DNA from: an uncultured Ruminococcus sp.
GTDB lineage: Bacteria; Bacillota; Clostridia; Oscillospirales; Ruminococcaceae
Length of the DNA: 55,532 bases
Direction of reading: 5' to 3'
Assembly: GCA_964501705.1 (NCBI GenBank)
Contig: CAZCUQ010000002.1
Location: 1 to 55,532 of the forward strand
Both the position numbers and the translations under genes were made by a program. Numbering within the stretch: position 1 is the first letter of the stretch; every line of letters begins with the position of its first letter. Shown here in pieces: positions 2,461 through 28,662 of the stretch. The notes under the pieces were generated by a model that worked only from the letters and a program-made list of their open reading frames with translations, was not told the origin of the DNA and searched no databases.

Positions 2461-2536
<76 letters not shown>

Positions 2537-5560: not shown

Positions 5561-6529
5561 ATGACATTAATGGAAAAGCTTGTAAGCCTGCGAAAGGAAC
5601 ACAAATTCTCTCAGGAGGAGCTTGCGGAAAAGCTCGGCGTGTCGAGACAGACAATTTCAAAATGGGAGAGAGGCGAAGCTTCCCCCGATATGGGAAACGC
5701 AATACAGCTTGCAAAGATATACGATATATCTCTCGACGAGATAGCGCGCTGTATTACGGGCGAGGAAGATCCCGTAAAGCCTCACGGAATAAGTCTTAAA
5801 AAGGAAACCTACAGAAACGCCGCCGAAAGTAGCGCCGCTTCAAACGAATATATAAGAATGGTTCTCCCCGAAAAGGAATCCGATGAGATATATCCTCAGC
5901 TGAACGCCTATAAATCGGCAGACGGCGGGAACGTCTCAGATAAAATGCCGGAAAGAAAGACCGTGCATGAAGAAAAAACTTTTGAAAACGATCAGGAATC
6001 CGTTCGTGTGCAGAAAATCAAGGGGTATTTTACGGATTATCAAAGAGAAGCTGTCGGAAAAAAGCTGATGAAATTTCCGTTCTGGGCGCTGGCGATTTTC
6101 ATATTCTTATTTTTCGGCGGAGTATTGCGTTTATGGGAATATTCATGGATAGTTTTTCTGCTCATTCCCGTTTACTATACAACGATAAAAGCGTGGGTCA
6201 GCAAAAACGCGTTCTATTTCCTTTATCCGCTTTTTGCGACGGCGGCGTTCTGCTTTTTGTGCATGGCTTTCAATGGCGAAAGTCTTATGGCAGCCTTTTT
6301 TGCAGTATGGACATTCGGCTCAATACCGCTTTATTACACGTCGATCATCGCGTACAGAAAGAAAAAATGTAAATTTTTCTGTTTTCCTGTGGCTGTTGCC
6401 ATATTGTTTGTTTCGGGAACATTGGTATTTGGCAGCGGAGAACTGTGGCTGTGGCTCTTTGCGCTGATACCGTTTTACTACATATATTCATCAAAGATAG
6501 ACGAAAAAATATTCGGGGGAAAGAAATGA
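5561..6529 (+). CDS. XRE-family HTH transcriptional regulator fused to a multi-pass membrane domain
   Basis: N-terminus LRKEHKFSQEELAEKLGVSRQTISKWERGEASP is a Cro/C1-type HTH. The C-terminal half has at least 5 hydrophobic segments with a thrice-repeated (L/S)IPxYYT motif. Confidence 0.75.
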   Translation: MTLMEKLVSLRKEHKFSQEELAEKLGVSRQTISKWERGEASPDMGNAIQLAKIYDISLDEIARCITGEEDPVKPHGISLKKETYRNAAESSAASNEYIRMVLPEKESDEIYPQLNAYKSADGGNVSDKMPERKTVHEEKTFENDQESVRVQKIKGYFTDYQREAVGKKLMKFPFWALAIFIFLFFGGVLRLWEYSWIVFLLIPVYYTTIKAWVSKNAFYFLYPLFATAAFCFLCMAFNGESLMAAFFAVWTFGSIPLYYTSIIAYRKKKCKFFCFPVAVAILFVSGTLVFGSGELWLWLFALIPFYYIYSSKIDEKIFGGKK

Positions 6530-7080
6530 TATATTTATTTGCTTCAAGGTTTATGGGACAAACCCGCGCCGAGCAGCATGAGGCGGCATACAAGCTTTTG
6601 TTTTCAAAGCTTCGGGAAGTATACAGCGTGAACGCTTCCTCGGAGATCATTCTGACGGGGATCAGCGGAAAGCCGTACTTTAAGGATATTCCGATAAGCT
6701 TTAACATTTCTCATTGCAGGGGATATGTATGCGCGGCTTTCTGCCGCAGTGACGAGGGAAACGTCGGAACCGACTGCGAAATGATACGTCCGTATAAGAA
6801 AAATATGGCGCTCAGATATTTTACCGATAAAGAGAATATCATCTGCGAAAATAACGATAAAATATTCACCGAGCTTTTTTCTCTGCACGAAAGCTATGTA
6901 AAATATACGGGCACGGGGATAGCGGGGCATTTTAAGGATATTTCCTTTGATATATGGGAGGGGAATATCCTCACCGACAGAAAAGATATTTCCTTCTATG
7001 CGTATGATATTGACGGAGGAATCGTCACTCTCTGCGCCGAAAAGAATTCGGGAGTCTATATGGGAAGTTTGAGTAAATAA
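6526..7080 (+). CDS. Sfp-type 4'-phosphopantetheinyl transferase
   Basis: The ATG at 6526 overlaps the upstream stop (ATGA). Motifs GKPYF, FNISHC, VGTDCE and LHESYVKYTG are typical of the PPTase superfamily. The ORF-track start at 6445 lies inside the upstream gene. Confidence 0.75.
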   Translation: MIYLFASRFMGQTRAEQHEAAYKLLFSKLREVYSVNASSEIILTGISGKPYFKDIPISFNISHCRGYVCAAFCRSDEGNVGTDCEMIRPYKKNMALRYFTDKENIICENNDKIFTELFSLHESYVKYTGTGIAGHFKDISFDIWEGNILTDRKDISFYAYDIDGGIVTLCAEKNSGVYMGSLSK

Positions 7081-7161: not shown

Positions 7162-8034
7162 TTAGTCAGCAATAAGATTCACATAGGAATCGTCAAGCGT
7201 TTCATCTCCGTCAAACCCGCGGCACAAGCCATAATGCCCGTAATAAATGTCCTCAGCTTTATATTCCCCCGAATAATTCCAAACATCACTATGAGAATAT
7301 ACTTCCATAACTCCGCTGTAGGAATAAAAGCTGCTTATGCTTTTAATGAGAATATCCGCCTTATCCAAAGGAAAGCTTGTTTCACGGATAATGTATCTGT
7401 CGCCTTCATTTGTGCATACAGCGAAATGTGTTTTCCCCTCATAGGATGCTTCAAGAATATGTCCCTTTGTGAAAATATCGTCGTACATATATTTTTCCGT
7501 GTCACCCTCCCAATAAAACGCGTTTCCAATACTGTCAAGAAGGGCTGTGCGCAATACCGAAAACCTTTCAAAAGGACAAATCCTCCATTTAACATCACTG
7601 CTGTCGGAAGAGACATTTACCGAATAGGTGTGAAGCTTTGCAATTCTCTTATATCCCCACCTGTCATAAAGATAGACAAGCTCATCGGCTGCGGCAAATA
7701 CCATACCTGTTTTTCCGCTTTGCTTTGTAAAATTCATACAACCCTCTATCATATATTTCAGATTTCCGTGTCCCTGATAGTTTTTAAGAGTTGAAGCTGC
7801 AAAGGGAAATATGAAGCTCTGCTTTTGACCGTTTTTATCCTTGAAGTAAGCATCAAACCAATAAACCGCCGATTCAATTTCGGTTCCGTTAAAAACAACT
7901 AAAGTTCTTTCGGGAGAAAAGCTCCTTTCAAAGAAAAAGTCACAGTAGCCGTCCGCATCTTCGGGAAATCCCTCGCACCATATTTTTTTCAGAGTGTCAA
8001 TATCACTTTTCTTCGGATGTACCAGCTTTCGCAT
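7162..8034 (-). CDS. GNAT-fold N-acetyl/acyltransferase-like protein (last gene of the train)
   Basis: ATG at 8034 with GGAGG upstream, overlapping the upstream gene by 32 nt. The segment FPFAASTLKNYQGHGNLKYMIEGC resembles the GNAT acyl-CoA-binding core. Assignment is by eye only. Confidence 0.5.
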   Translation of the reverse strand: MRKLVHPKKSDIDTLKKIWCEGFPEDADGYCDFFFERSFSPERTLVVFNGTEIESAVYWFDAYFKDKNGQKQSFIFPFAASTLKNYQGHGNLKYMIEGCMNFTKQSGKTGMVFAAADELVYLYDRWGYKRIAKLHTYSVNVSSDSSDVKWRICPFERFSVLRTALLDSIGNAFYWEGDTEKYMYDDIFTKGHILEASYEGKTHFAVCTNEGDRYIIRETSFPLDKADILIKSISSFYSYSGVMEVYSHSDVWNYSGEYKAEDIYYGHYGLCRGFDGDETLDDSYVNLIAD

Positions 8035-11008
8035 TCAGTCCGCCTCCAATTACAAATAAGGTCAGCAAGCCGCAGAATATAACAGCAATTGTCAGTATTC
8101 CCTTTTGTTCTCCAAGCAGCAGCGCCGCACCGAATGCTACAGAACCGCAGGCAGACGTTATGCTTTCAATCGTGCTGTTGATTCCCAATGCGCGGCTTTG
8201 ACCGATGGTATTAACTTCCGGCATAGAAGAAAAATAAACCGACTGTGCTGATAATCCGAAGCTGTCAGCAGCCGCAAAAAGTACGATCACTATATAACAG
8301 CTTGCGATAGACGGATTGAAAACAAGATACAGCAGCGCCGCCGCATATATAAACGAAGCAAGTATCATAGACTTTCTTGTACCGAGCTTTGATATAACAG
8401 GCTCTCCCAGGGCATCTCCCGCATAAATGGATATTACCCCGCTTATAAGGAATGCCATAGATATTTCAGCGGCGGAAAGGGAATTTTCCTCCGCAACTAT
8501 CGGGAAATAATAGCTTAGGAATGATGCGCAAATCAAATAAGGAATAGCGAGACAAATGAAATAGCGTATCAGATTCGGAGTAATAAAGTCCCTGATCGAA
8601 GCATTGCTTCTTTTCCCTTCAATGACAGTCCGCTTGTTATCCAAAAGCATTATGCCAAGGATCAGAATGAGCACTGCACAAAAAGCGGCAGTGAAATAAG
8701 CAGCCGTTATTCCAAACTGCTCCCATAAAATTGAACCGACGACCGTTCCGCAGTTCATACCTGCAAGAAAAGCCGCATTGTAATGAACAAAACCCTTGTT
8801 GCGGTTTTCTTCTTCATCAAAGTCTGCTATCCGGGAATTTATCGCTATTGTGAGAAATCCTCCGCCTATGCCGCAGATACTGTTTGCGCATATAAGCATC
8901 CACAGATTTCCCGCAAAAGCTGACAGCATATTTCCTCCGATATAGAACACCGCTCCTATAAGGCACATAGGCTTTATTCCTGTCTTTTTTATGGCAAACC
9001 CACAGAACAAGGAAGAAATTGCCGATACGATCAGCTCCGCAGAAAGAGGCAGCGCCGCAGCAACTTCAGCCGGCATAGGAAAGTCTTCGTTCCAGAGCGA
9101 CATACCGTATATCGGCAGAAATGCGGTTGTTATATTCGCCGTAAAGAAAACCATAAACGCAACAGGACGAATGATCTCGGGGGAATATGAAGACTTGTCC
9201 GAAGCTGCTCTGTGCCTTGCGCGGAATGCCGTGCCGCCGTTCATGATCTCGGCAAACAGCAGCATTATTATTATAACTGCCATTGAAGAAAGTATCAGTA
9301 TATTCTTGTACAAAGCGTTGTTTTCCTGAACATAGATGTCATAATTCGCACCCACTTCGATAAATGCCAGTATTTCACCGTTTTCATCGTATGACGGAAT
9401 AAGCGCAAAGGTGTAGTTGCCCTCCGAAAGCTCATAATCCTGTGAGATATAGATTTCGCTGCTCTCCGCAAGAACTTGCTCGACAGAATTCGCGTAAGCC
9501 CCTGCCATAGGATACATTATGCTGTGTAATCCGTCATTTCTGTAAACCTCGCATATTACATTGCTGTGGATCCTGTATATTACAGCGTAAACATTGCGGG
9601 ATTCATTTGTATTGCTTTTCAAAACACTCAAAATGTCGTCGTTAAGTGCCTGATAGCTCTCGTCAAACCACATATCGGGAGAATTTAATTTTGCAACCGT
9701 TTCCTTGTCCATTGTGGCATCTATCAGATAGGCTATATTGGAAAGATTTTCGACGGATTCGGATACAAATCTTTCATTGCAGGTATTGAAGATAGTAAGA
9801 GAAACTCCTGCTGTTACCGCTATGGCAGTCAGCAAAACAAGTATCTGAGTATTATTTTTGGCAAAGCCCTCCGATCGGATCATACCAATGATTTTTATCA
9901 GTGAATAAACGGCAATTACCGCCATAAGCAGAATAGCGGCATATACACAAAGGACAATTACTTTATATCCCGGGCTTATGCCGATAATATCGCTGCTGAA
10001 TATTTCTTCGCCTGTACTGTTTACACAATTAACGAAATATGTATATTCAGATTCGTCCGTAACAGGGTCATAGCTGTATTCTGCCGATACCACAGAAATA
10101 TTTCCGCCGTCCGCGTTCAATCCCGAATAAAGAGGCGCTTCGGAAATACTTCCCGTGCTGCCGCCGCTGAAATGACCCTGTCCGATAACCTCTGTCAGCT
10201 GACCGTCAGTTCCTATGGAATACACCTTTCTGAGTCCGATGTCGCCTGCATAAAGCGTTCCGCTGCTGTAATCCACATCGGAAATAATGCTGCAATATTC
10301 ATCGGTGTCATTTTCAGACGCGTCATAAAGCAGCAGATCTTCTCCGTTTTGATATGTATGTATATCTCCGTTCATTAACGAAACATAAATATTAAGAGAA
10401 TCATCAAAGGTGCTGTCGGACACATCATCATATGCATTCTCCAAAGGCATAAAGGCACATTCCGCAGCTTCATTACCGGAGCATTTTTTAACATATATGC
10501 CGTCCTCACAAATCTCGGAAAAGTACAATTCACCCTTGATAATCCGAGGACTGTCAAGATAGATAACCTGAATATTATCTTCATCGCATGTATCCGCTTC
10601 GTAAAGCACTTCTCTTTTTCTGCCGCTGTTTGTGAATTTCAGTATTCTTTCACGATAAGCATAGGTTCCGTCATAATTATAGCTTTTATCGTGTACATAA
10701 AGCTCGCCGTTACAGGCAGCTGCGGCATCTGCATAATCAAATGTCCTGTCGGGATCGCCTCCGGGCAGTAAATATATAAGTTCATTGTTTTCATCGGTAA
10801 CGGCTATGGAATATGAAGAATCCGTAATGTAATAATTTCCGCTGTCGGTAAACACAGCCTGAACAGGATTTTCAAGATAATATTCACTTTCAAACGGATT
10901 ACTGCCTATGCAGTCTGCAAATGTGCTTACAAAAGCCGTAAGCAGCACCAAAGCGGTTATTATCAGAAATACAGAATTGCTTTTTATTTTCTCTTTAAAA
11001 TTTTTCAC
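8003..11008 (-). CDS. Large membrane protein: N-terminal TM + repeat (propeller-like) ectodomain + second Cache-like ectodomain + C-terminal MFS-type 12-TM domain
   Basis: I prefer the GTG at 11008 (AGGAG 7 nt upstream) over the ORF-track TTG at 11014. Recurrent GxLY...D repeats (GELYVHD, GELYFSE, GTLYAGD). The C-terminal ~400 aa is polytopic with MFS-like loops. Confidence 0.6.
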   Translation of the reverse strand: MKNFKEKIKSNSVFLIITALVLLTAFVSTFADCIGSNPFESEYYLENPVQAVFTDSGNYYITDSSYSIAVTDENNELIYLLPGGDPDRTFDYADAAAACNGELYVHDKSYNYDGTYAYRERILKFTNSGRKREVLYEADTCDEDNIQVIYLDSPRIIKGELYFSEICEDGIYVKKCSGNEAAECAFMPLENAYDDVSDSTFDDSLNIYVSLMNGDIHTYQNGEDLLLYDASENDTDEYCSIISDVDYSSGTLYAGDIGLRKVYSIGTDGQLTEVIGQGHFSGGSTGSISEAPLYSGLNADGGNISVVSAEYSYDPVTDESEYTYFVNCVNSTGEEIFSSDIIGISPGYKVIVLCVYAAILLMAVIAVYSLIKIIGMIRSEGFAKNNTQILVLLTAIAVTAGVSLTIFNTCNERFVSESVENLSNIAYLIDATMDKETVAKLNSPDMWFDESYQALNDDILSVLKSNTNESRNVYAVIYRIHSNVICEVYRNDGLHSIMYPMAGAYANSVEQVLAESSEIYISQDYELSEGNYTFALIPSYDENGEILAFIEVGANYDIYVQENNALYKNILILSSMAVIIIMLLFAEIMNGGTAFRARHRAASDKSSYSPEIIRPVAFMVFFTANITTAFLPIYGMSLWNEDFPMPAEVAAALPLSAELIVSAISSLFCGFAIKKTGIKPMCLIGAVFYIGGNMLSAFAGNLWMLICANSICGIGGGFLTIAINSRIADFDEEENRNKGFVHYNAAFLAGMNCGTVVGSILWEQFGITAAYFTAAFCAVLILILGIMLLDNKRTVIEGKRSNASIRDFITPNLIRYFICLAIPYLICASFLSYYFPIVAEENSLSAAEISMAFLISGVISIYAGDALGEPVISKLGTRKSMILASFIYAAALLYLVFNPSIASCYIVIVLFAAADSFGLSAQSVYFSSMPEVNTIGQSRALGINSTIESITSACGSVAFGAALLLGEQKGILTIAVIFCGLLTLFVIGGGLNAKAGTSEEK

Positions 11009-11018
11009 AGGCAAGCTC

Positions 11019-11939
11019 CTAAACTACTGTAACAGTATATTTATCGATCATTTTACAGGGACGAAGCAGAGTTTTGTCATTTTTAAGTCCCGCAACTCCT
11101 ATATCCTCACCAAGATTTATAAAGTCAACATTTTTATGTTCAATTGCCATCTGTCTGTTCAGCCAATATGTAAGTCCTCTTATCCTTTCGGCATTTTTCT
11201 GAAAATAATAACACATAGTGTTATCATTGATCTTTTCACATACCGCGAAGGATAAGGGCTTGTTTCCGTCGTATGAAACCGAGATCCTGTGTCTGTCGGG
11301 GACGTATATCTCCATAAATCTCCTAAACGCATTTTTTTCGCACCCATAAAAACAGTTTTCACATTTATGGACATCGCACCATTTATCAAAAATGCTCATA
11401 CAGTCGGAATATTTGTCGGGAGTATATTTTTCACATTTTAATTCGGGATAATGAGCTGTAATGTAATTATATCCCCCTCGTTTTGTTTTATTTGACGTAC
11501 CTGCCATAGATAAAAAAGCATCTGTGTCATAAAGATAATCGCTGAATTTTTCATCAAATGTTATTTTGGCAGAATAACCGTTTTCAATTATCAGATCCCG
11601 ATAAATTTCTGTTTCACTAAGATCAACATATTCAAAAAGCGGCTTAATATTATTTGAACGGCAATATCCGATAACAGCGTTGATTGCCTCGCACAATGCT
11701 TCATTGCTTTTGCTGAGGATACAAAAGCCCCTTCTGCTGTCAACACCGATTCCCGTGACAGCAATCGCATCTCTCAGCAAAGCATACCTGTAATTAAACC
11801 TTTCACCCCACGCATAGAACATAGAGAATGTAGTATCTCCGCAGAAATTATCATTCCTGTATTCTCTGAAATATTCATATGCCGTGCTGTCAAAAGCATT
11901 GAAATCGACAGCTGACGGGGAAAGCAAAGAAACAGCCAT
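11019..11939 (-). CDS. DUF2156-type protein (fold of the MprF aminoacyl-phosphatidylglycerol synthase C-terminal domain)
   Basis: ATG at 11939. Pattern CGDTTFSMFYAWGERF ... DYLYDTDAFLSMAGTSNKTKRGGYNY matches what I recall of DUF2156 proteins (D-x-S/T-F-x3-Y-x-W ... DYxY ... G-x4-KR-x2-N). Confidence 0.55.
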   Translation of the reverse strand: MAVSLLSPSAVDFNAFDSTAYEYFREYRNDNFCGDTTFSMFYAWGERFNYRYALLRDAIAVTGIGVDSRRGFCILSKSNEALCEAINAVIGYCRSNNIKPLFEYVDLSETEIYRDLIIENGYSAKITFDEKFSDYLYDTDAFLSMAGTSNKTKRGGYNYITAHYPELKCEKYTPDKYSDCMSIFDKWCDVHKCENCFYGCEKNAFRRFMEIYVPDRHRISVSYDGNKPLSFAVCEKINDNTMCYYFQKNAERIRGLTYWLNRQMAIEHKNVDFINLGEDIGVAGLKNDKTLLRPCKMIDKYTVTVV

Positions 11940-12006: not shown

Positions 12007-13404
12007 TTATCCTTCATCCATAATCGACTTAATATTTTCCTCATAACTATCCTTAAAAAAGCTGCACGCCATCGGATCCTTTTCAAAATATCCGCCGCAG
12101 GCAAGCGCATTTGCACGGCAGCCCGAGCAGCGGTATCTGTTTTCACAGGCAGCACATTCGGAATTATTTTTAAAAAGCTCTTTATATGTGTAAGAACAAT
12201 AGGTGTCGATTGGCGACACGCTGAGAGCTTTTTCAAGGCTTTGCCCTTCATCGAAAATATTCGGCGCTATGTTTTCCATAGAAGAACCACTCATTGCAAT
12301 ACACGGCAGCAGCCGTCCATCAGGAAGAAGATATGGAAAAACACGAACCGTTTCACAAAGATAATCAGATTCCCTTTCGCAGCTCCCGCAGCCTGACACA
12401 AAAGGTATATACCACTTTTCCGAATTATTTTTGAAGCCCTGAAAAAATCCGCCTAATCCAAGACGCAAAGGCATACCCTCGTTCTTGTATATTTTGATAA
12501 GCTTAATATATTCATCGAAAACCGCGGAATAATTTATGCCTCTGTCCGATTGACCCCGCCAGTTTCCCGTATCGACAATCGGCACTGCCTTCCAGTGCAT
12601 TACTCCAAGCTCCTTCATAAGTTCATATGTATCAATAAGCGAACCGATATTTCCGTTATGAAGAGAGGTTGAAACCGTAACTTCATATCCGCGGCTTCGT
12701 ATAAGTTTTATTGCGGCGACAGCCTTCTTTTCAGCGCCCTTAACTCCTCTGAGCCAGTCGTGACAGTTTACGCCGTCAAAGCTGAGCATAAAACAATTAG
12801 GATGAAGATCACGGCTTTGAAATTCGTCCATAAACTTTTCATCGACAGCAATACCATTGGTAAACACCTGAAGCAGTGTGATATGGTTTTCCGAAAGCAT
12901 ATCAACTATCTTCCAGAAATCCTTCCGAACAAGCGGTTCGCCGCCTGTAAGCGCAACCATATCAACGTTAGCTTCCCTGCACTGTCTTATGACTTCTCTG
13001 CATTTTTCAAGAGAAACCTCACCGTATTTGTTTTCATCAGAAGAGATATAGCAATGTCTGCACCGAAGATTACAGTTTCCTGTAACAGACCAAAGCATCG
13101 TGTGGGTGTATTTTGCCTCGGTATATCGGTATTTCTGATAATCCTCAAGTTTTTTATCCCTGCCGCACTCAACGAGAAAGCCTTTTGCGGCGGCAAGCTC
13201 TGTCATTTTCCTCAGCTTTTTCGGAATCAAAGGCTCGTCTGCCGATACTCCGCCTGCTGTAAGAAGCTCCAATGCCTCAAACTGCAATTGAGTAAGAATG
13301 AGAACACGGTCACGGATATTTTTACATTCAAGATCCACCACCGCATACTTTATATCTTTCCAGCCTCTCAGCGCATATTGGGGTTTAAGAGTAAAATACC
13401 GCAT
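12007..13404 (-). CDS. Radical SAM / SPASM-domain peptide maturase with N-terminal RRE-like region
   Basis: AGGAGAG RBS. CNLRCRHC (Cx3Cx2C) and TGGEPL SAM motifs. C-terminal Cys clusters CGSCERESDYLC ... PC and CAACENRYRCSGCRANALACGG. About 95 aa precede the rSAM core. Confidence 0.85.
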   Translation of the reverse strand: MRYFTLKPQYALRGWKDIKYAVVDLECKNIRDRVLILTQLQFEALELLTAGGVSADEPLIPKKLRKMTELAAAKGFLVECGRDKKLEDYQKYRYTEAKYTHTMLWSVTGNCNLRCRHCYISSDENKYGEVSLEKCREVIRQCREANVDMVALTGGEPLVRKDFWKIVDMLSENHITLLQVFTNGIAVDEKFMDEFQSRDLHPNCFMLSFDGVNCHDWLRGVKGAEKKAVAAIKLIRSRGYEVTVSTSLHNGNIGSLIDTYELMKELGVMHWKAVPIVDTGNWRGQSDRGINYSAVFDEYIKLIKIYKNEGMPLRLGLGGFFQGFKNNSEKWYIPFVSGCGSCERESDYLCETVRVFPYLLPDGRLLPCIAMSGSSMENIAPNIFDEGQSLEKALSVSPIDTYCSYTYKELFKNNSECAACENRYRCSGCRANALACGGYFEKDPMACSFFKDSYEENIKSIMDEG

Positions 13405-13512
13405 TTGTTTCTCTCCTGTCTTATGTTATTAATACCGAACGCTCCCGAATCTTTTAAAGAGAACAGACGACTCCACAATAAGCTATGAAGCCGTCTGCCC
13501 GACCCGGATATT

Positions 13513-13571
13513 ATGCCGTTTTCCCGCGCAGGTCATTTACGTGTATAACGTTCTGCGCGGATTTGCGGCAT
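13513..13571 (-). promoter_or_regulatory. Compound stem-loop between the last precursor gene and the maturase gene (possible attenuator or processing site)
   Basis: On the minus strand: ATGCCG-caaat-CCGCGCAG-(21 nt)-CTGCGCGG-gaaaa-CGGCAT. There is no clear U-tract. Confidence 0.35.
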
Positions 13572-13577
13572 TGCTGA

Positions 13578-13877
13578 TTAAAGATTTACATTAAGATTGC
13601 CTACTCCGTTGCCGCATACAACATCTCCGGTATGACCCTTACCGCCTGCTACAGAATCAAGGTCATCCTCATCAAGCTCCGTGTTGTCACCGTTCAGATA
13701 TGCCTTTGCTTCCTCAATGGTAATGTCGAAGCCAAGCTTCTTTGCAAGCACGCCAATCTTTGCGAGCTGCTCATCGGAAGCCTCTTCAAACTTTTTATCA
13801 CCAAGAATAGTGATAAGCTCCTTCTTTGCCGCGTCATCCGCAACAGCCTTTGCGTAGAATTCAGTTACCTTACTCAT
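13578..13877 (-). CDS. RiPP precursor D, Nif11-type leader (99 aa); core KGHTGDVVCGNGVGNLNVNL
   Basis: AAGGAGG RBS. Leader MSKVTEFYAKAV ... SDEQLAKIGVLAKKLGFDITIEEAKAYL ... LDEDDLDSVAGG has the Nif11 leader pattern with a double-Gly cleavage motif. Confidence 0.85.
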   Translation of the reverse strand: MSKVTEFYAKAVADDAAKKELITILGDKKFEEASDEQLAKIGVLAKKLGFDITIEEAKAYLNGDNTELDEDDLDSVAGGKGHTGDVVCGNGVGNLNVNL

Positions 13878-13952
13878 TGTAAGTTCCTCCTTTTAATTTA
13901 CGGTTTCCCGCATAGTATATGTATAAGCCTTTGAAGGCTCAATACCTTGAAA

Positions 13953-14279
13953 TTATTCGGATATGAGGGGTCCGGACTCGCTTACTTCCGGTTTGCCGCC
14001 TACCTGGCAAACAATTATTTTTGTTTCGTAATGATCCCCCTTGCCGCCGGCAACAGCATCGAGGTCGTCATCATTGAGAGCAGCCTCTTCAGGGTCAAGA
14101 AATTCCCTTGCCTCACTGACTGTAATGCTATATCCAAGTTCCCCGGCAATCACGCTCAGTGCTTCAAGCTGTTCATCGGAAGCGTTTTCCATTGTTTTGC
14201 CGTTAAGTATATCGGCAGCTCTTTTCCGTGTGCTTTCATCTGAAATAAGTTTTTCATAAAAATCGCAGAATTTGCTCAC
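13953..14279 (-). CDS. RiPP precursor C, Nif11-type leader (108 aa, GTG start); core KGDHYETKIIVCQVGGKPEVSESGPLISE
   Basis: GTG at 14279 is preceded by GGAGAGGAG. From that codon the product (M)SKFCDFYEKLI... aligns with the other three leaders. The ORF-track extension to 14453 overlaps precursor B out of frame. Confidence 0.8.
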   Translation of the reverse strand: MSKFCDFYEKLISDESTRKRAADILNGKTMENASDEQLEALSVIAGELGYSITVSEAREFLDPEEAALNDDDLDAVAGGKGDHYETKIIVCQVGGKPEVSESGPLISE

Positions 14280-14301
14280 AATTCCATCTCCTCTCCGAAT
14301 T

Positions 14302-14640
14302 TCAATAGGCAGGGTGAACGGTAGGCTCGTTATTGTTATCATCATATCCTGCCTGTCCGCCGACTTCGCATACATGAATCTCGGTATAATGGGTCTGATT
14401 CTTTCCTCCGGCAGCGGCATCAAGGTCGTCATCATCAAGCTCCGCAAAGTCATTATTCAGATATTCTCTTGCCTCATCAGCGGTAATATCGAAGCCGAGC
14501 TTCTTTGCGAGTATGCCTATTTTTTCGATCTGCTCATCGGATACATTTTGTATCTCTGTTCCGTTCAGTATATCGGCAAGTTCTTTGTTTGCAGCCGAAT
14601 CCGAAATTGCCTTGCTGTAAAAATCCGTAATTTTGCTCAT
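14302..14640 (-). CDS. RiPP precursor B, Nif11-type leader (112 aa); core KNQTHYTEIHVCEVGGQAGYDDNNNEPTVHPAY
   Basis: CAGGAGG RBS. Leader MSKITDFYSKAI ... SDEQIEKIGILAKKLGFDITADEAREYL ... LDDDDLDAAAGG. Confidence 0.85.
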   Translation of the reverse strand: MSKITDFYSKAISDSAANKELADILNGTEIQNVSDEQIEKIGILAKKLGFDITADEAREYLNNDFAELDDDDLDAAAGGKNQTHYTEIHVCEVGGQAGYDDNNNEPTVHPAY

Positions 14641-14669
14641 ATAAAAACCTCCTGTAATTTTTTATTTTC

Positions 14670-14999
14670 TTAAGATTGGGTAACGCCGCCGCCGTTTGAA
14701 CCATTACATTCAAATTTCAATGTATCGCCTCTGTATAAAGATATACGCGATGAGTTTCCCTTTCCGCCTGCGACAGCATCAAGGTCATCATCATCAAGCT
14801 CTGTATCATCACCGCGCAGATACGCCTTTGCTTCTTCAACGGTAATGTCAAATCCCATCTGCTTTGCGATTTCTCCGATCCTTTCAAGCTGTTCATCGGC
14901 TGCCTGCGCAATATCAGAGCCATCGAGTATTTTGCCAAGCTCTGCATTCTTTTCACTGTCTGCAAGTACCGCAGAATAAAAATCATTGATCTTACTCAT
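14670..14999 (-). CDS. RiPP precursor A, Nif11-type leader (109 aa); core KGNSSRISLYRGDTLKFECNGSNGGGVTQS
   Basis: ATG at 14999 (AAAGGTG upstream) gives MSKINDFYSAVL..., collinear with the paralogues. The ORF-track start at 15050 overlaps the upstream gene. Confidence 0.85.
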   Translation of the reverse strand: MSKINDFYSAVLADSEKNAELGKILDGSDIAQAADEQLERIGEIAKQMGFDITVEEAKAYLRGDDTELDDDDLDAVAGGKGNSSRISLYRGDTLKFECNGSNGGGVTQS

Positions 15000-15015: not shown

Positions 15016-15756
15016 TTACTTTTTGTTAATGCTGCTCTGTCCCGAAGCATCTTCCTTGACGGAAGAAGGATTTCCCGAATAGTTAATGGTACTCATACCC
15101 GAGGCTTCTGCGTCAAGCTCATTTTTCGCATAGACCTCCGCTGAAGATGTTCCCGAAACAGATACCTTTACATTGCCCGCCTCAGCATCGGCGGCATTAA
15201 GCTTCGATACACCGGAAATATCATACGAAGCCAGGTCGCAGCTTCCCTTAACGCTTACAACGGAAGCTCCTTCAGCCGATACATTTATTTCCGTAACCTC
15301 CTCGGGAATTGTATAATCAGTCTGAACACTTCCGCTTACATTGACAGAGGAAACCTTTGCGCCAATAGTAAGCGTGTAATTCATATTTTCATACATTACT
15401 CCCGATCTGCCCGACAAAATGATTTTTTGGCCCGCTTCGTCAACAGATAATGTCAGATCATCACATACATTATCATCAGCCTCTATTTTTGATTCGGACG
15501 CGGAAGGATCGATAATCACCTTGATATTTGAGTTGCTGTTGCTTATAGTGCCTGTGGAGAAGCTGTAAATGCCATCGGGAACAGAAACGCTTTTTTCTGT
15601 CATTGAACCGCTGCCCTTGATAATTTCAGAAAACTCTTCATCATTCATATCAATCACAACAGAATCGGAATATGTATCCTCTTCTCCGCAAGCAGTAAAT
15701 GCTCCGAGAATTGCCGCCGCGGATAAAATCACCGCGGCCGCTTTCTTTTTTTTCAT
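15016..15756 (-). CDS. Lipoprotein with DUF2807/GIN-type beta-helical repeat domain
   Basis: I prefer the ATG at 15756 (AAAGGTGGGG 5 nt upstream). Signal plus lipobox-like AFTAC. Repeated S/T-G-x-S/V strands (VSGSVQT, SAEGASVV, ISGVSKL, VSGTSSAEV, YSGNPSSV, ASGQSSI). Confidence 0.6.
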   Translation of the reverse strand: MKKKKAAAVILSAAAILGAFTACGEEDTYSDSVVIDMNDEEFSEIIKGSGSMTEKSVSVPDGIYSFSTGTISNSNSNIKVIIDPSASESKIEADDNVCDDLTLSVDEAGQKIILSGRSGVMYENMNYTLTIGAKVSSVNVSGSVQTDYTIPEEVTEINVSAEGASVVSVKGSCDLASYDISGVSKLNAADAEAGNVKVSVSGTSSAEVYAKNELDAEASGMSTINYSGNPSSVKEDASGQSSINKK

Positions 15757-15779
15757 AATAACCCCACCTTTCATATTAT

Positions 15780-16517
15780 TTAAGCGGTAAGCCCGCCATC
15801 TATGATAAATGTCTGTCCCGTAATATAGACCGACTTATCGCTTGCAAGGAATACACAAAGCTCCGCAACCTCCGAGGGCTTTCCAAAACGTCCCAAAGGA
15901 ATTTCGGCAATGCACTTGTTTTTGTATTCATCATCAAATCCCGCTGTCATAGCCGTTTCGATATATCCCGGAGCAACAGCGTTTACCCTGATATTTTTTG
16001 AAGCCAATTCAAGAGCGGCAGCTTTTGTAATGCCTATAATACCCGCCTTGGAAGCACAGTAGCTGCTCTGACCCGCACCGCCCTTAACACCGAAAACAGA
16101 ACTGATGTTAATTACCGAACCGTGCTTTTGTGACATCATCGGAATCGCTGCGGCCTGCATTGCGGCAAAAACAGCGGACAGATTGCAGTTTATCACATTG
16201 TCCCAGTTTTCTTTTCCGGCTGAAAACAGCAGTTCGGGACAAGCTATTCCCGCCGCGTTGATAAGCGCGTCTATTCCGCCCATAGCTTTTATCTGCTTTT
16301 TTATTGACGGAGATATGCTGTCCCTGTCGGAAAGATCAAGACAGAATGGAAACAGCTTATCGGGAAATTCCTCCGAAAGCTCTTCAATAGCAGCCGAACC
16401 GTTTCTGTATGATCCCGATACGACCGCTCCCTCTCTGATACATTCGGCGGCACAGGCAAGACCTATCCCGCCCGAAGCACCTGTTATTATCACTTTTTTT
16501 CCTTCAAGAATACCCAT
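15780..16517 (-). CDS. SDR-family 3-oxoacyl-ACP reductase (FabG-like), cluster-specific
   Basis: TGASGGIGLA (TGxxxGxG) and YCASKAG (YxxxK). The ATG abuts the upstream stop. Confidence 0.8.
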   Translation of the reverse strand: MGILEGKKVIITGASGGIGLACAAECIREGAVVSGSYRNGSAAIEELSEEFPDKLFPFCLDLSDRDSISPSIKKQIKAMGGIDALINAAGIACPELLFSAGKENWDNVINCNLSAVFAAMQAAAIPMMSQKHGSVINISSVFGVKGGAGQSSYCASKAGIIGITKAAALELASKNIRVNAVAPGYIETAMTAGFDDEYKNKCIAEIPLGRFGKPSEVAELCVFLASDKSVYITGQTFIIDGGLTA

Positions 16518-17546
16518 CTAACACGCCTCCGACAGCATACAGCAGTAATTCCCCGCTGTGTCTGTACCCGTTACAAGAATGGTTTTAACGCTGTCAAGCG
16601 ACTTATCCGCAAAATTATCGGACACCTTGCCTGTTTTTAACACCGCAGCGGCAAGAGCGGCACTCAACATATATCCGCTGCCGAGAGTTTCGCCAAACAG
16701 CCGTTTGGGATAAGCATATACCGTTCTGTTCTCAAATACGCTGTCCATTGCTTCTTTTTCTATGCTGTCGAAGTATGTCCCGTTTGCCGCTGTGAACACC
16801 GCATCGGGAACTTTATCGCCGCAAATCTCTGATACAGCTTTAGCAATAAGCTTTGAGCATTGTTTATCGGCCGAAGCTGTCAAGGGATAAACGGGAAGCA
16901 GCGCCGATGAAAAATCCGATACCTTGCAGTATGTGTTCAAGCTCTTTTCGGCTCTGACCGTAAAAACTGCAGTACCCTCCGAAATGTCGCTGCCCGCGGC
17001 CGTTTTGAGGGTTTTGATTGAATCAAACAGCTCCCCTGAATACTCCTCCACAGAACCGCACAGGATAACGTCCGCCTTTTTGCCGCTCAGAAGAAGCGAG
17101 GTATACTCCAAAGGGTCGCCGCCCATAAGAACGGTACTGACACCCTTATAGCCGTTTACAATACATATCTGACCGACGCAGGAATTCGGAACGGTTCCCG
17201 AAAACACTGTAGGACTGCACAGCGCGGGATTTCCCCTTGCCACCGAATCGGAAAACCGAATGTTGCTTTCCGCAGCGCCGAAGCCTGTTGAAATTATCGT
17301 CCCGACTCTTGTTACGTCAATATCATCGGGGTATTTTCCGTCAATCCTTGCAAAATCGGCAGCGGCGACAGCGAGCTTACTGTATCTGCTGCATCTTCTC
17401 AGTTTTGAGGACGGTACGTTCGACGTAAATTCCGGTCTGCCGCCGTTTATTTCGGGGATTTTGCCCTCGGCGATCTTCATAAGCTCAGCAGCGGACATCG
17501 CACATCGGGAGATAATTCCGATCCCGTCAATATATACGGGCTTCAT
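16518..17546 (-). CDS. Beta-ketoacyl synthase-like protein (chain-length-factor type partner of the KS)
   Basis: Thiolase-fold KS N-terminal-like sequence (YIDGIGIISRCA ... VPNSCVGQICIVNGYKG ... VILCGSVEEYS), only 342 aa and without the C-H-H triad motifs. TAATG overlap with the KS gene. Confidence 0.6.
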   Translation of the reverse strand: MKPVYIDGIGIISRCAMSAAELMKIAEGKIPEINGGRPEFTSNVPSSKLRRCSRYSKLAVAAADFARIDGKYPDDIDVTRVGTIISTGFGAAESNIRFSDSVARGNPALCSPTVFSGTVPNSCVGQICIVNGYKGVSTVLMGGDPLEYTSLLLSGKKADVILCGSVEEYSGELFDSIKTLKTAAGSDISEGTAVFTVRAEKSLNTYCKVSDFSSALLPVYPLTASADKQCSKLIAKAVSEICGDKVPDAVFTAANGTYFDSIEKEAMDSVFENRTVYAYPKRLFGETLGSGYMLSAALAAAVLKTGKVSDNFADKSLDSVKTILVTGTDTAGNYCCMLSEAC

Positions 17547-18736
17547 TACGCTTCACCTCCGCTGTATTTTTTTACAAGAACACTTGCGCTGTTTCCCGCA
17601 AAAGCGAAGCTGTCGGAAATGGCACAGTTTATATCCATATCACGATTTTTAAGGATAATATACACATTATCCGCTCCCATGACAGGTTCTGTCAGATTTG
17701 GCATAATTATCGCCTTATTGTACTTCATAGACAGAATAACGCTGATAAGCTCTGCCGCACCCGAAGCACCCATACAATGTCCGATAAGCGCCTTGGTGGA
17801 TGATAACGCAGGCTTTTTTGCGCTGCCTTTATATATCCTGTTTATAGCCTTTATTTCCATACTGTCGTTTATTGCGGTGCCCGTACCGTGACCGTTTATG
17901 TAATCGACCTCGTCAATGTCGGTACTGCCATCGGAAAGTGCGGAAAGCATTGTGCGGTATGCTCCGCTTCCGTCAGGCTCGGGGCTTGTAATATGGTACG
18001 CATCGTTGCCGATACTGTAGCCCGCTATCTCACAATAGATATTTGCATTTCTTTTCAGGGCGTGTTCAATGGATTCAAACATAAGAAATGCGCCGCATTC
18101 GCCGATATTTATGCCGTCACGTTTTTCATCGTAAGGATTGCAGGTACCGCTGCTCAGTGATTTCAGCGCATTAAATCCATACGCCGCAACTATTGTCAAA
18201 GGATCTGCACCGCCCACAACAGCCATATCGCATATACCGTTTCTTATGTAATCGAGTGCCATCCCCGCCGCAGTAGTTCCCGAAGCGCAGGCGGCGGATG
18301 AAACACTTGCTCCGCCTTTTACACCCGTAAGCTCTTTGATGTATGAAATATAGTCATTCATTCCGGCAAGAGTTCCGTCTGATGGCTTGCCGTCTGCTTT
18401 GTTAATGCTGTGCTTATAATAGGAGCCTGTATTTGAAAGGAGCGTTCCGTAAAAAAGGCGGCAATTTTTGCCCTCGGACGAAAGCGTTTCCCTGTCAAGC
18501 CCGCAGTCGGAAAGCATTTCGGCGCAGGATTTTTTGATAAGTATGCGAAGCCTTGCGTCAGTGTCCCTTTCGTCAATATCCGCTTCACCGAAATATTCGG
18601 TAAGAAGCCCATCGGTACTGAAAGCAGTGCATTTTTTTATACCGCTTATTCCCTCCGAACAAGCTTTGATAAATTCCGACTTATTATTTGCATTTCCGCA
18701 GACGATTCCCATTCCCGTAACAACGACTTTTTTCAT
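17546..18736 (-). CDS. Beta-ketoacyl-ACP synthase II-type condensing enzyme (FabF-like)
   Basis: I prefer the ATG at 18736 (MKKVVVTGMGIV) over the TTG at 18742. Active-site motifs SAACASG, NGHGTGT and GHCMGASG. Confidence 0.85.
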   Translation of the reverse strand: MKKVVVTGMGIVCGNANNKSEFIKACSEGISGIKKCTAFSTDGLLTEYFGEADIDERDTDARLRILIKKSCAEMLSDCGLDRETLSSEGKNCRLFYGTLLSNTGSYYKHSINKADGKPSDGTLAGMNDYISYIKELTGVKGGASVSSAACASGTTAAGMALDYIRNGICDMAVVGGADPLTIVAAYGFNALKSLSSGTCNPYDEKRDGINIGECGAFLMFESIEHALKRNANIYCEIAGYSIGNDAYHITSPEPDGSGAYRTMLSALSDGSTDIDEVDYINGHGTGTAINDSMEIKAINRIYKGSAKKPALSSTKALIGHCMGASGAAELISVILSMKYNKAIIMPNLTEPVMGADNVYIILKNRDMDINCAISDSFAFAGNSASVLVKKYSGGEA

Positions 18737-18738
18737 AA

Positions 18739-19005
18739 TCAACCCTCATGTGTCCGGATATATTCCGCAATGTTATTTACGGAACTGAGCAGGCGCATAT
18801 CTTCGGAAGGCACATCAATCCCCCAGGTATCATAAATCATAACCGCCAGCTCAAGAGCGTCAACGGAATCCAGTCCCATAGTTACCTCATCACCGCTTCC
18901 CGATCCGAAAACAGGTGAATCATATGTAAATCCTTCAATTTCCGTGGTGTCAACGTCCATAGTTTCAATAATTTTTTCAAAAATCAAGTTTTCAATAGTT
19001 TCCAT
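18739..19005 (-). CDS. Acyl carrier protein (non-housekeeping type)
   Basis: 88 aa, GGAGG RBS. Phosphopantetheine site GLDSVDALEL in the helix II context. Confidence 0.8.
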   Translation of the reverse strand: METIENLIFEKIIETMDVDTTEIEGFTYDSPVFGSGSGDEVTMGLDSVDALELAVMIYDTWGIDVPSEDMRLLSSVNNIAEYIRTHEG

Positions 19006-19018
19006 AGAGAATCCTCCG

Positions 19019-19903
19019 TTAATGCAGTATATAGTTTATTGAGCATTTTACCGATGATGTAACTATTCCAAGCAGTTTTTTTTGAAATTTATTTGCCCTG
19101 TCATTGTTTTCATACATAGCATAAACTGCCCGCTTGCAGTCAAAGGTCTTGAACATTTCCATTGACCCCGCAAAGGCAAGAAGAATACAGCCGCTTCCCA
19201 GATACCTTTCAGACGCGGAAATATGCTCAAAAACAGCACTGCTTTTATCGGGAGTGCTTACCAGCGTATAAGCGGCAAGCTCATTTTCCCTGAAAACGGC
19301 ATAGCTCATTTTTCTGCTGAGATACCTGTTCGGATCGTCGAAAAAAGGCTTCACATCAAGCTCATTCCGAAAATTGTTTTCGCCTGACAGATAAATATCT
19401 GAAATACGCTTCTCCGGCAGATCCGCAAAGCTGACCTTTGAAAATCCCTGACGGTTAAGCATATTGCAAAGCTTTCCGCCCGTGTCTGCCATATATTCCT
19501 CCCAGCGGATAAAATCCTCCGATTTTCCGCTGAAAACATTGCAGACCGAGCCTTTTTCAAAACCGCATTTCAGGCAAGCTCTTGATACCGCCGCAAAATA
19601 TCGGTGTTTCTCGGTAATACCGACTCTTACGGGCTTCGGCATATTTTCTGCCGCAAAGCTAAGGAGAGCTGAAAATACTCCTTTTTCTCTCTCGGTTTCA
19701 ATTGTATATCCATAAAGCAGCCTCGTAAATCCGCTGTCAGCCGACAGGCATACATAGCCGACTGCCTGTCCGTTTTCCCACAGCATATATATCCTGCCGC
19801 CTGTTGATAAAGCGCTCTTTGCCGAAATATCCGAAAGCCGGCTTCTGCTTTCGCCGAAAAGGAAAATGTAATCTGTAAAAGTCGCTTCGGCTATTTTACG
19901 CAT
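19019..19903 (-). CDS. Tandem GNAT-like acyltransferase (candidate peptide N-acyltransferase)
   Basis: Two halves each resemble a GNAT core (ENGQAVGYVCL ... ETEREKGVFSALLSFA; ENELAAYTLV ... SERYLGSGCILLAF). By-eye assignment. 8-nt overlap with the upstream gene. Confidence 0.45.
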   Translation of the reverse strand: MRKIAEATFTDYIFLFGESRSRLSDISAKSALSTGGRIYMLWENGQAVGYVCLSADSGFTRLLYGYTIETEREKGVFSALLSFAAENMPKPVRVGITEKHRYFAAVSRACLKCGFEKGSVCNVFSGKSEDFIRWEEYMADTGGKLCNMLNRQGFSKVSFADLPEKRISDIYLSGENNFRNELDVKPFFDDPNRYLSRKMSYAVFRENELAAYTLVSTPDKSSAVFEHISASERYLGSGCILLAFAGSMEMFKTFDCKRAVYAMYENNDRANKFQKKLLGIVTSSVKCSINYILH

Positions 19904-20744
19904 ATTTACACATTCCTTCCAACCCGATTTCGCAAAGATATTTTACCCGTTCATCACGGGACATTTTTTTGAATTCATCGCTGACGGCAAACGCTTCGAG
20001 ATATTCGGAAGCGCTTACTGCCGTTTCGGAAACCGCTTTTCCCACCTTGTCGGAAAGACCCACGGTGTAAAATTTCAGCCTGCCGCCGCTTGTACCCGTA
20101 ATTCCCATAAATCTTAGAAAATGCTCGGCTTTATAATATCCGAACGCTTCATACAGTCCGAAAAAATCAGCCATTATCTCATCGTGCAGACGATTTTGCG
20201 AAAGACCGTATTTCTGTTTGGTGAAATAGTGGGTACACTCGTGCTCACGTCGAATTATCATTGACCTTTCGGACCATTCTTCTTCCGAAAGTCCCATCTC
20301 GGAAGCGGGGACATTGCTGTAAGGCTTTGCGGACAGAATAATAAATCTTGTGGATTTTCCGAACGCGAAGGATGCTCCCGTTTCGGAAAGACCGTCGGGA
20401 CGGATTCCCTTGTATATCGCATTTGTGACCAACGCTTCAAAGTCATTTTTATCGGACAGATAAATGATCGGTATCTCCCCCGCAAAGGAATTGTAAATTT
20501 CAAGTCTTATCCTTTCGGGTGATCTGAAATCAACAGGCCGCTTCGGGCATACATATCCGTTTATCGCCTCCGCTGCGCCGCGATCGGCAGCGACAGAAGC
20601 TATATTCCGCCATTTTTCAAGAAATGCCGTATCATACGCGATATTTTCAGTGCAGTCTGCAAACCCGTTTGATATGTATTCTCTGTACTCCTTCTCTTCA
20701 TCGGAAGAAAGAGCGTATTTGGCTATAATTTCGTTTATTGTCAA
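19896..20744 (-). CDS. Uncharacterised protein with HExxH motif (putative metallopeptidase)
   Basis: HECTH at ...IIRREHECTHYFTKQ..., followed by LHDEIMADFFG. I prefer the TTG at 20744 (GGAGGTG 5 nt upstream) over the ORF-track TTG at 20789, which overlaps the ABC gene. Confidence 0.5.
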   Translation of the reverse strand: MTINEIIAKYALSSDEEKEYREYISNGFADCTENIAYDTAFLEKWRNIASVAADRGAAEAINGYVCPKRPVDFRSPERIRLEIYNSFAGEIPIIYLSDKNDFEALVTNAIYKGIRPDGLSETGASFAFGKSTRFIILSAKPYSNVPASEMGLSEEEWSERSMIIRREHECTHYFTKQKYGLSQNRLHDEIMADFFGLYEAFGYYKAEHFLRFMGITGTSGGRLKFYTVGLSDKVGKAVSETAVSASEYLEAFAVSDEFKKMSRDERVKYLCEIGLEGMCKYA

Positions 20745-20766
20745 GCTAACACCTCCGATAGCGGCA

Positions 20767-22929: not shown

Positions 22930-22943
22930 ATTTTTCACCTCGG

Positions 22944-28571: not shown

Positions 28572-28662
28572 ATAACAGTACCTCTTTCCTGACAATATTA
28601 TTGACGGCTTTCACGCCATTTTTAAGGGTTTAATGCGTATAACAGAGATTTTTCTGTCCCAA

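Follow-up and report, generated by a model that had tools for sequence, protein, structure and literature searches.

Ribosomal lipopeptides are wanted as programmable alternatives to non-ribosomal lipopeptide drugs, and the known groups are, to our knowledge, few: selidamides, lipolanthines, goadvionins, and lipoavitides. The subject here is a set of four paralogous precursor genes (A to D) and the gene cluster around them in a 55,532-nucleotide (nt) stretch of contig CAZCUQ010000002.1 from an uncultured Ruminococcus sp. This whole stretch is called the window, and numbers prefixed with L and P denote the related loci and homologous proteins of this analysis. The cluster looks like a Nif11-led lipopeptide pathway of a selidamide-like kind that also employs radical SAM (rSAM) chemistry and has its own acyl-chain synthase, that is, known machinery in a new combination. 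Metagenomes of gut and rumen Clostridia contain the pathway widely. The searched literature, in which DUF7005 and lipidated sactipeptides were also covered, gave no account of a cluster of this type.

[quoted passage not shown] The closest precedent for the window cluster is nostolysamide, from the npu cluster (NpuA, NpuN, NpuM, and NpuT) of Nostoc punctiforme. The precursor NpuA has a 78-amino-acid (aa) Nif11 leader and a ...VAGG/KGKSC... junction (the slash marks the leader-core boundary), NpuN is a tandem GNAT resembling VipF, and NpuT, an ATP-binding cassette (ABC) transporter with a peptidase domain (PCAT), is predicted to remove the leader (PMC13060382; PMC8784127). At the ...AGG/KG junction, the same as in the window, the side chain of Lys1 is acylated by the tandem GNAT, and a K1A substitution abolishes acylation (PMC13060382, PMC8784127). 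The two systems have in common a detectably homologous Nif11-type leader of 78 to 79 aa, an ...AVAGG/KG... junction with Lys as core residue 1, and a cluster-encoded tandem GNAT together with a PCAT that serves export and cleavage at Gly-Gly. The model of the window GNAT matches VipF among other tandem GNATs, a likeness also reported for NpuN. They differ in that a radical SAM/SPASM enzyme stands here in place of the lanthionine synthetase, and in that the window cluster has its own acyl carrier protein (ACP), ketosynthase (KS), KS-like protein, ketoreductase, and 4′-phosphopantetheinyl transferase (PPTase). The acyl donor here is probably acyl-ACP, whereas NpuN used acyl-CoA in vitro, and the hosts are anaerobic Clostridia rather than a cyanobacterium.

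The goadvionins, lipolanthines, and lipoavitides of Actinobacteria likewise join a cluster-encoded peptide to the product of dedicated acyl synthesis by a GNAT-type acyltransferase, and the ACP-bound donor of goadvionin is a precedent for the window cluster. In those systems, however, the N-terminal α-amine is acylated after a protease has removed the leader, avionin or AviMeCys rings are formed by lanthipeptide-type enzymes, and the acyl chain comes from type I polyketide synthase or FabH-based systems. Unlike the window cluster, they lack a Nif11 leader, PCAT-coupled cleavage, and an rSAM; no lanthipeptide-type, LanD-type, or HopA1-type domains were identified among the cluster genes scanned here. 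A third group, the sactipeptides and ranthipeptides, especially type 2 such as streptosactin, shares the arrangement of a SPASM-type rSAM beside Cys-bearing precursors and would also share one ring per Cys. Four-residue sactionine rings are known in streptosactin (PMC9389541), and the C-x-x-G spacing seen here would fit them. The window enzyme differs in scoring below every curated model cutoff, and its substrates in usually having a single Cys and in being, as we infer, lipidated as well.

The original prediction, made from the window sequence and its translated open reading frames (ORFs), had described four precursors, which lie on the minus strand, and their positions, lengths, and quoted cores all proved correct (Table 1). 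Each of the four begins with a 79-aa leader (M1 to G79) ending in AGG, and 27 leader columns are invariant in their alignment, in which Lys at residue 80 is also invariant and one Cys column is aligned. Pairwise leader identity is 44 to 62% at the aa level and 57 to 70% at the nt level. The shared leader motifs held apart from gene A, which reads ADEQL and not SDEQL. A family-specific leader hidden Markov model (HMM) recovered the four precursors with E values of 4e−29 to 5e−40 (A at 2.6e−36). The comparison with a Nif11-leader HMM that had been proposed gave a more qualified outcome: all four match TIGR03798, with 31.7 bits for A (E value, 1.3e−7), 20.5 for B, 25.4 for C, and 23.7 for D, but every score lies below the cutoff of 32.3. 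PF07862 similarly gave 20.4 bits for A and 17.6 for D against a cutoff of 23.8. Because all model scores are significant yet below the curated cutoffs, the precursors are, judged by sequence, a divergent branch of Nif11-type leaders. The predicted assignment to this leader type, with a Gly-Gly cut site, was borne out by homology of the precursor A leader to the NpuA family (32% identity to an NpuA homologue in a pairwise alignment; E value, 2e−9) and by a PCAT and a partner ABC protein that score above their cutoffs. The cluster encodes both an AGG-ended leader of 79 aa and PCAT export machinery of the NHLP/Nif11 type.

The unusual start proposed for gene C also stood. The GTG at 14279 gives the MSK N terminus typical of the family, and it is supported by its ribosome-binding site, GGAGAGGAG, and by the homologues, all of which begin with MSK. 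An alternative ORF initiated at ATG reaches 14453 and overlaps gene B, and the public annotation of gene C is over-long, at 130 aa (P0002). The GTG start and its miscalling by automatic annotation are what could be cited for the view that A to D are decaying or silent paralogues of which one or none is a real substrate. This view is very improbable. The four leaders are intact, each gene has its own Shine-Dalgarno sequence upstream, and spacing is tight, with 16 nt between the upstream gene and A and then 29, 22, and 75 nt between successive precursors. Moreover, several independent homologues of every core type are found in further metagenomes, and arrays of 2 to 7 precursors are normal in related loci, in which the number ranges from 1 to 7 per locus.

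A profile built from the four precursors identified about 100 homologues, nearly all metagenomic, with Ruminococcus, Oscillospiraceae, and Selenomonadaceae as the main sources; those that carry a name come from metagenome-assembled genomes (MAGs) of Ruminococcus sp. Core statistics were drawn from 94 unique homologous cores, with some counts made on a slightly wider set of 96. The Lys directly after Gly-Gly that had been noted in every window core (4 of 4) is not universal in the family, although it is found in 81 of the 94 cores against a Lys background of 7% (binomial p, 1e−78, shared ancestry ignored). Gly occupies core position 2 in 62 of 96. Fifteen of the 96 cores lack Lys1, and 13 of these carry a Lys at positions 2 to 6 instead (GG-GK, GG-TGGSK, GG-TVKG, GG-FNGK, and similar). 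About 30% would be expected to do so, as estimated from the 7% background, which points to a needed Lys rather than to a cleavage-site preference. After the first two residues were removed and the cores clustered, an early Lys (within the first six) was found in 20 of 22 clusters, Cys-less singletons included. Across the family alignments, an early Lys is the most general feature of the precursors. In cores B and D, Lys1 is the sole Lys.

These cores are encoded alongside a conserved set of enzymes. Ten related loci were compared, eight on distinct contigs reached through their precursors (L001, L003, L005, L006, and L033 to L036) and two from collection scans (L009 and L012); the PCAT, the second ABC protein, the tandem GNAT, ACP, KS, KS-like protein, and rSAM were identified in all 10. 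The GNAT gene adjoins those for ACP and the KS/KS-like pair in every related locus, and, as in selidamide clusters, a GNAT-superfamily maturase is encoded beside a Nif11 precursor throughout. It is likely that the products are lipidated, and by analogy with nostolysamide the site of acylation is probably the Lys1 side chain. The original prediction had named Lys as the acylation site while leaving the choice between its ε-amine and the new N terminus; Lys is well supported by comparison and precedent, and the side-chain amine appears the likelier of the two groups. It is favoured because the only recognised leader peptidase, the C39 domain of the PCAT, acts during export, because Lys is retained even when its position shifts, and because nostolysamide, the nearest characterised system, is acylated in this way. 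Since the PCAT couples leader removal to export, the N-terminal amine would not be free in the cytoplasm.

Several observations weigh against acylation of the Lys1 side chain. A marine Nif11 family with no homologue of the window GNAT, ACP, or KS within 10 kb has the GG/KG junction too, and K1-G2 may in part be a convention of the leader lineage. At L012, three precursors have no Lys at positions 1 to 6, and one of these has no Lys at all; the cores of L011 also lack Lys. For the GNAT, no detectable sequence relative of known function was found. DUF7005, which in one relative is fused to the GNAT, could, if it is a protease, free the N terminus for α-amine acylation. An alternative is therefore lipidation of the new N-terminal α-amine after leader removal, with Lys1 kept for charge, membrane targeting, or cleavage context. 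Known RiPP/fatty-acid/polyketide hybrids with cluster-encoded acyl synthesis are acylated N-terminally (PMC13647313; lipoavitide preprint), and the goadvionin GNAT takes an ACP-bound donor (PMC8784127). The gene for the HExxH protein DUF7005 overlaps that for the GNAT by 8 nt, the two being fused in P0262, and L012 keeps the GNAT though some of its cores have no early Lys. Acylation at the N terminus would need no Lys, yet Lys is present at positions 1 to 6 in 97% of cores. The sole recognised leader peptidase is the exporter C39 domain, which cuts at export, and the GNAT protein has no export signal. DUF7005 is missing from L001, L003, and L009, all of which keep the GNAT, and is found in non-RiPP contexts too. 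N-terminal lipidation is accordingly improbable, and the Lys1 side chain is kept as the preferred acceptor.

The AlphaFold2 (AF2) model of the GNAT (pLDDT, 91.7) has a tandem GNAT fold, and its best fold matches are the tandem GNATs MAB_4324, the clavulanate tandem GNAT, VipF, and MshD (E values, 1e−14 to 1e−10). A search of its sequence against solved structures gave no match. Thirty-eight relatives were found by a word-based search and 272 representatives by an exhaustive profile search; ten distant relatives were sampled, among which three named entries in two clusters were all from Clostridia.

The DUF7005 gene, whose true start is probably at 20744, encodes invariant residues H183, E184, H187, H202, D203, and E204, forming an HExxH and an HDE motif. 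Its sequence matched no solved structure, and its AF2 model (pLDDT, 91.3) gave no fold match in the PDB better than an E value of 0.85. The family has 393 or more matches and also stands alone in non-RiPP neighbourhoods. Fusions of DUF7005 occur in relatives, with the rSAM in L012 (6857-9190, 777 aa) and with the tandem GNAT in P0262 (600 aa). HExxH domains fused to RiPP rSAM enzymes have been described as α-ketoglutarate-dependent hydroxylases (PMC12636437). The arrangement in L012 resembles that of such triceptide-type α-ketoglutarate/Fe enzymes in that an HExxH protein is fused to or lies beside a RiPP rSAM, but the DUF7005 model differs, having no solved fold match, and the family is also fused to GNAT and found outside RiPP clusters. 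The likely hosts of window-type clusters are presumably anaerobes, and an O2-dependent hydroxylase role for DUF7005 is for this reason unlikely.

The second conserved feature of the cores is centred on Cys. The original description of the cores as diverging completely was too strong, as a module conserved around the Cys, [I/V]-C-x-x-G-[G/V]-G, links all Cys-bearing cores into a single chained cluster of similarity. Residues at −2 and −1 are β-branched or aromatic, Gly lies at +3 (68 of 90, against a Gly background of 16%; p, 8e−36, shared ancestry ignored), and G/V and then G follow. Most multi-Cys cores have a separate C-x-x-[G/A]-G unit for each Cys. Core D falls in the largest core subfamily, C-x-N-G-V-G-N-[IL]-x-V-x-L, and core B has near relatives in P0005, P0007, P0008, and P0013. 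Exactly one Cys per core, as first noted, is true of all four window cores but only a tendency in the family, in which, of 96 cores, 15 have none (16%), 69 have one (72%), and 10 and 2 have two and three, respectively (together 12%). The hydrophobic-Cys-x-x-G context does not extend to core A, which reads F-E-C-N-G-S, that is, C-x-G after Glu. The HY...VC likeness of B and C holds, with a spacer of 4 residues in the former and 5 in the latter. Homologous clusters with precursors lacking the post-GG Lys or the Cys, which had been named as evidence that would speak against the prediction, do exist (L012, L005, and L033) and are a minority.

A SPASM-type rSAM gene adjoins Cys-bearing precursors, as in sactipeptide and ranthipeptide clusters (4 of 4 window cores and 84% of the family), and no related locus of sufficient length lacks an rSAM gene. 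Since the Cys module is conserved and repeated once per Cys, and an rSAM is always present beside it, the Cys is a plausible rSAM substrate, as had been proposed, though L033 and L039 are exceptions. On these sequence patterns the balance tips somewhat toward the Cys as the rSAM target; that the modification is a thioether falls slightly short of an even call. The link between Cys and rSAM is plausible and weaker than the case for Lys1 acylation. Four points weigh against it: the rSAM is retained at L033, where the only precursor lacks Cys; the L039 cluster has no rSAM although it encodes a core that contains Cys; Cys is absent from 16% of cores; and core A has C-x-G in place of C-x-x-G.

The first two of these points also favour an alternative in which the Cys is not an rSAM substrate and the enzyme instead carries out epimerisation, C-C cross-linking, or modification of the acyl-Lys. 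The Cys would then remain a free thiol, form a disulfide, or undergo a non-radical addition, for example to an unsaturated acyl chain, which FabA/ApeI-like dehydratases encoded in some loci could yield. Cys-less precursors co-occur in L005, L006, L012, and L035, and the rSAM lies outside the curated sactisynthase and ranthisynthase families. This alternative is nevertheless unlikely. In otherwise variable cores, nothing but the Cys-centred module is conserved, and it recurs at each Cys in most multi-Cys cores; the nearest solved rSAM relative by sequence is a sactisynthase, and SPASM-type rSAMs beside Cys-bearing precursors most often form thioethers (PMC9389541). The Cys stays the favoured target.

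The rSAM has a CNLRCRHC motif at residues 111 to 118 and nine C-terminal Cys residues, including CxxCx5CxxCx6C. Its assignment to the SPASM type is made from this Cys pattern and a full-length alignment to TIGR04340; Pfam scans with E values up to 10 found neither PqqD nor a RiPP recognition element in the N-terminal 100 aa and no SPASM domain in the C-terminal 197 aa. Among the NCBIfam models, none of the curated families of sactisynthases or ranthisynthases includes it, the best matches being the generic TIGR04053, NirJ, AhbD, WgkB, and StsB, with 73 to 99 bits against cutoffs of 395 to 650. The solved relative nearest in sequence is the sactisynthase SkfB (1.4e−13). An NCBIfam scan of the rSAM, GNAT, DUF7005, DUF2156, and DUF2807 proteins gave no match at a family cutoff. 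A second, different rSAM/SPASM gene lies directly after the first in L003 (11808-13184) and L006 (12906-14300). The idea that such a second enzyme serves Cys-less cores was rejected, as L003 has two rSAM genes and only one precursor, which is Cys-bearing; occurrence of the second gene shows no correlation with precursors that lack Cys.

Taken together, it is somewhat favoured that A to D encode the substrates of a single cluster, a hybrid of RiPP and fatty-acid/polyketide biosynthesis, and that these peptides are both lipidated and rSAM-modified. What was seen directly is the gene content, its synteny, the conserved motifs, and the protein folds; from them we infer the acyl acceptor, the donor role of acyl-ACP, the thioether chemistry, and the sequence in which the steps occur. 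In the proposed pathway, the 79-aa Nif11-type leader would dock each precursor to the cytoplasmic maturases. The PPTase would activate ACP, and the KS, its inactive KS-like partner, and FabG would load an acyl chain onto it. The tandem GNAT would then move this chain from acyl-ACP to the Lys1 side chain of the leader-bound precursor. The rSAM/SPASM enzyme would modify the Cys of [I/V]-C-x-x-G-[G/V]-G, most likely by a thioether to a nearby residue that closes a small ring. Finally, the PCAT, the partner ABC protein, and the HlyD-type protein would cleave the precursors behind Gly-Gly and carry the four distinct lipopeptides out of the cell.

A wider joint reading is held tentatively and is on the doubtful side: that these loci represent a new ribosomal lipopeptide class of gut and rumen Clostridia and Selenomonadaceae. 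It would unite a type II KS/KS-like/ACP-derived chain, a new tandem-GNAT family acting on Lys1, a new rSAM/SPASM family forming a thioether at C-x-x-G-G, and a fold-novel DUF7005 that physically partners both maturases. The family would be the first case joining side-chain-type lipidation, radical SAM cross-linking, and a private acyl-chain synthase. It would come from anaerobes of the gut and rumen, whose competition with other microbes such chemistry could influence. It would also provide a natural library, with 1 to 7 precursors per locus and about 100 distinct cores behind a common leader, all built on a fixed acceptor Lys and a modular unit around Cys, making the enzymes attractive for engineering.

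The cluster spans about 6.4 to 26 kb of the window, and the precursors lie inside one long run of minus-strand genes (Table 1). Because the TIGR03796 and TIGR03797 matches are above cutoff, the PCAT and the partner ABC protein are the predicted export and leader-cleavage pair, in which cleavage would be coupled to export. The C39 domain has the catalytic Cys context ECGAASL, and orthologues of the HlyD-type protein in L003 and L033 are 72 to 78% identical to it. The ACP gene is conserved beside the GNAT gene in related loci. The KS has an intact Cys-His-His triad (motifs AACASG, HITSP, and NGHGTG), whereas its KS-like partner, the gene for which always adjoins that of the KS in related loci, lacks the active-site Cys and both His residues when aligned to it.

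Table 1. Features of the cluster and its immediate surroundings in the window.
Feature	Position	Strand	Length (aa)	Supporting characteristics
Helix-turn-helix (HTH) regulator	5561-6529	+		Strand opposite to cluster
4′-Phosphopantetheinyl transferase, putative ACP activator	6445-7080	+		ACPS 6.7e−10
GNAT-like protein	7162-8034	-	290	Pfam
Membrane protein with C-terminal major facilitator superfamily (MFS) domain	8003-11014	-	1003	Pfam
DUF2156/LPG_synthase_C protein	11019-11939	-		Pfam
Radical SAM/SPASM peptide maturase	12007-13404	-	465	Pfam Radical_SAM 1.5e−23; Fer4_12
Precursor D	13578-13877	-	99	Core KGHTGDVVCGNGVGNLNVNL; Shine-Dalgarno AAGGAGG
Precursor C	13953-14279	-	108	GTG start; core KGDHYETKIIVCQVGGKPEVSESGPLISE; Shine-Dalgarno GGAGAGGAG
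Precursor B	14302-14640	-	112	Core KNQTHYTEIHVCEVGGQAGYDDNNNEPTVHPAY; Shine-Dalgarno AGGAGG
Precursor A	14670-14999	-	109	79-aa Nif11-type leader and core KGNSSRISLYRGDTLKFECNGSNGGGVTQS; Shine-Dalgarno AAGGTGA
DUF2807 protein	15016-15774	-		PF10988 3.9e−17; lipoprotein-like signal (...GAFTAC)
FabG-type ketoreductase	15780-16517	-		adh_short_C2 2e−63; TIGR01830 261 bits (cutoff 297.75)
KS-like partner (chain-length-factor-like)	16518-17546	-		Weak FabF matches
FabF-type ketosynthase	17546-18742	-		Pfam ketoacyl-synt N and C domains
Acyl carrier protein	18739-19005	-	88	PP-binding 1.5e−6; LDSVDALEL
Tandem GNAT, candidate Lys acyltransferase	19019-19903	-	294	Acetyltransf_1 4.9e−6
DUF7005 protein	19896-20789	-		PF22541 3.5e−52; invariant HExxH
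Partner ABC protein	20767-22938	-		TIGR03797 739.5 bits (cutoff 709)
PCAT with C39 peptidase domain	22944-25091	-		TIGR03796 945 bits (cutoff 853)
HlyD-type membrane fusion protein of exporter	25103-26014	-		HlyD_3 1.7e−5

The 10 compared loci come from Ruminococcus-like, Oscillospiraceae-like, and Selenomonadaceae metagenomes. L001 is the minimal cluster, having only the PCAT, second ABC protein, tandem GNAT, ACP, KS, KS-like protein, and rSAM with a single precursor; DUF7005, FabG, DUF2807, and the trio of DUF2156, MFS, and GNAT-like genes (window 7162-11939) are optional among related loci. This trio is conserved in L003, L005, and L036. In L006, L034, and L035 it is swapped for a FabA/ApeI-like dehydratase, a ketoreductase, and an acetyl-CoA carboxyltransferase, joined in L034 and L035 by a malonyl transferase. 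The trio, which lies downstream of the rSAM gene and whose DUF2156 member resembles the C-terminal part of MprF, possibly provides an MprF-like membrane modification for self-protection. The DUF2156 protein was also considered as an enzyme acting on Lys1 and rejected, as it is absent from L001, L006, L033, L034, and L035, which keep Lys1. The DUF2807 gene was called in six of the eight distinct-contig loci fetched through precursors, and its product is possibly an accessory protein with a role in immunity or binding.

The 173-nt spacer between precursor D and the rSAM gene (13405-13577) contains two strong RNA hairpins on the minus strand (13461-13571), with a fold energy of −61 kcal/mol (z = −5.6 against 200 shuffles). 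The second hairpin has a 17-bp stem (13461-13500) and is followed by UCUUU. The hairpins are a possible attenuator or partial terminator that could set the ratio of precursor to enzyme with precursor transcripts in excess. Farther out, a tRNA gene (2461-2533, plus strand) lies about 4 kb from the cluster on one side, and on the other a gene for a phage-type integrase (27474-28595, minus strand) lies just past it. A genomic island suggested by this pair was dropped, as a repeat of the tRNA region was not found in the rest of the window. SpoIIR, MutS2, arabinose isomerase, and GH2 genes in the flanks point to a chromosomal location in a Firmicute that forms spores and degrades carbohydrates.

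A GNAT profile search of genome contigs returned only five loci, mostly Selenomonadaceae MAGs. Another locus, L039 from Clostridium thailandense (JAETXK010000008.1, 5217-11313), encodes in order a PCAT, an ABC protein, an 86-aa Cys-rich peptide, a tandem GNAT distantly related to that of the window, and an 85-aa Nif11-like precursor with the core SDKGPSCWDMDVIV; no rSAM, ACP, or KS was identified within this cluster. As a minimal cluster in a named species, L039 is a possible experimental entry point. A precursor profile search of metagenome contigs gave four close loci among the matches listed, the others being generic Nif11 families. The marine metagenome contigs L016 to L027 carry a separate Nif11 family with a GG/KGHHHH... 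junction, arrays of up to six precursors, and long cores rich in Ala, Val, Thr, and Glu that end in VVLT or VVAT. No homologue of the window GNAT, ACP, or KS was found within 10 kb of these loci; L025 has an rSAM (660 aa) and an amidase nearby. A different and very large family is represented by L032 (60-10345), where about 20 tandem Nif11-like precursors with 4 to 7 Cys each share the core motif TQNR[YW][DN]Px.C...Y.CVGF...WCDHY.

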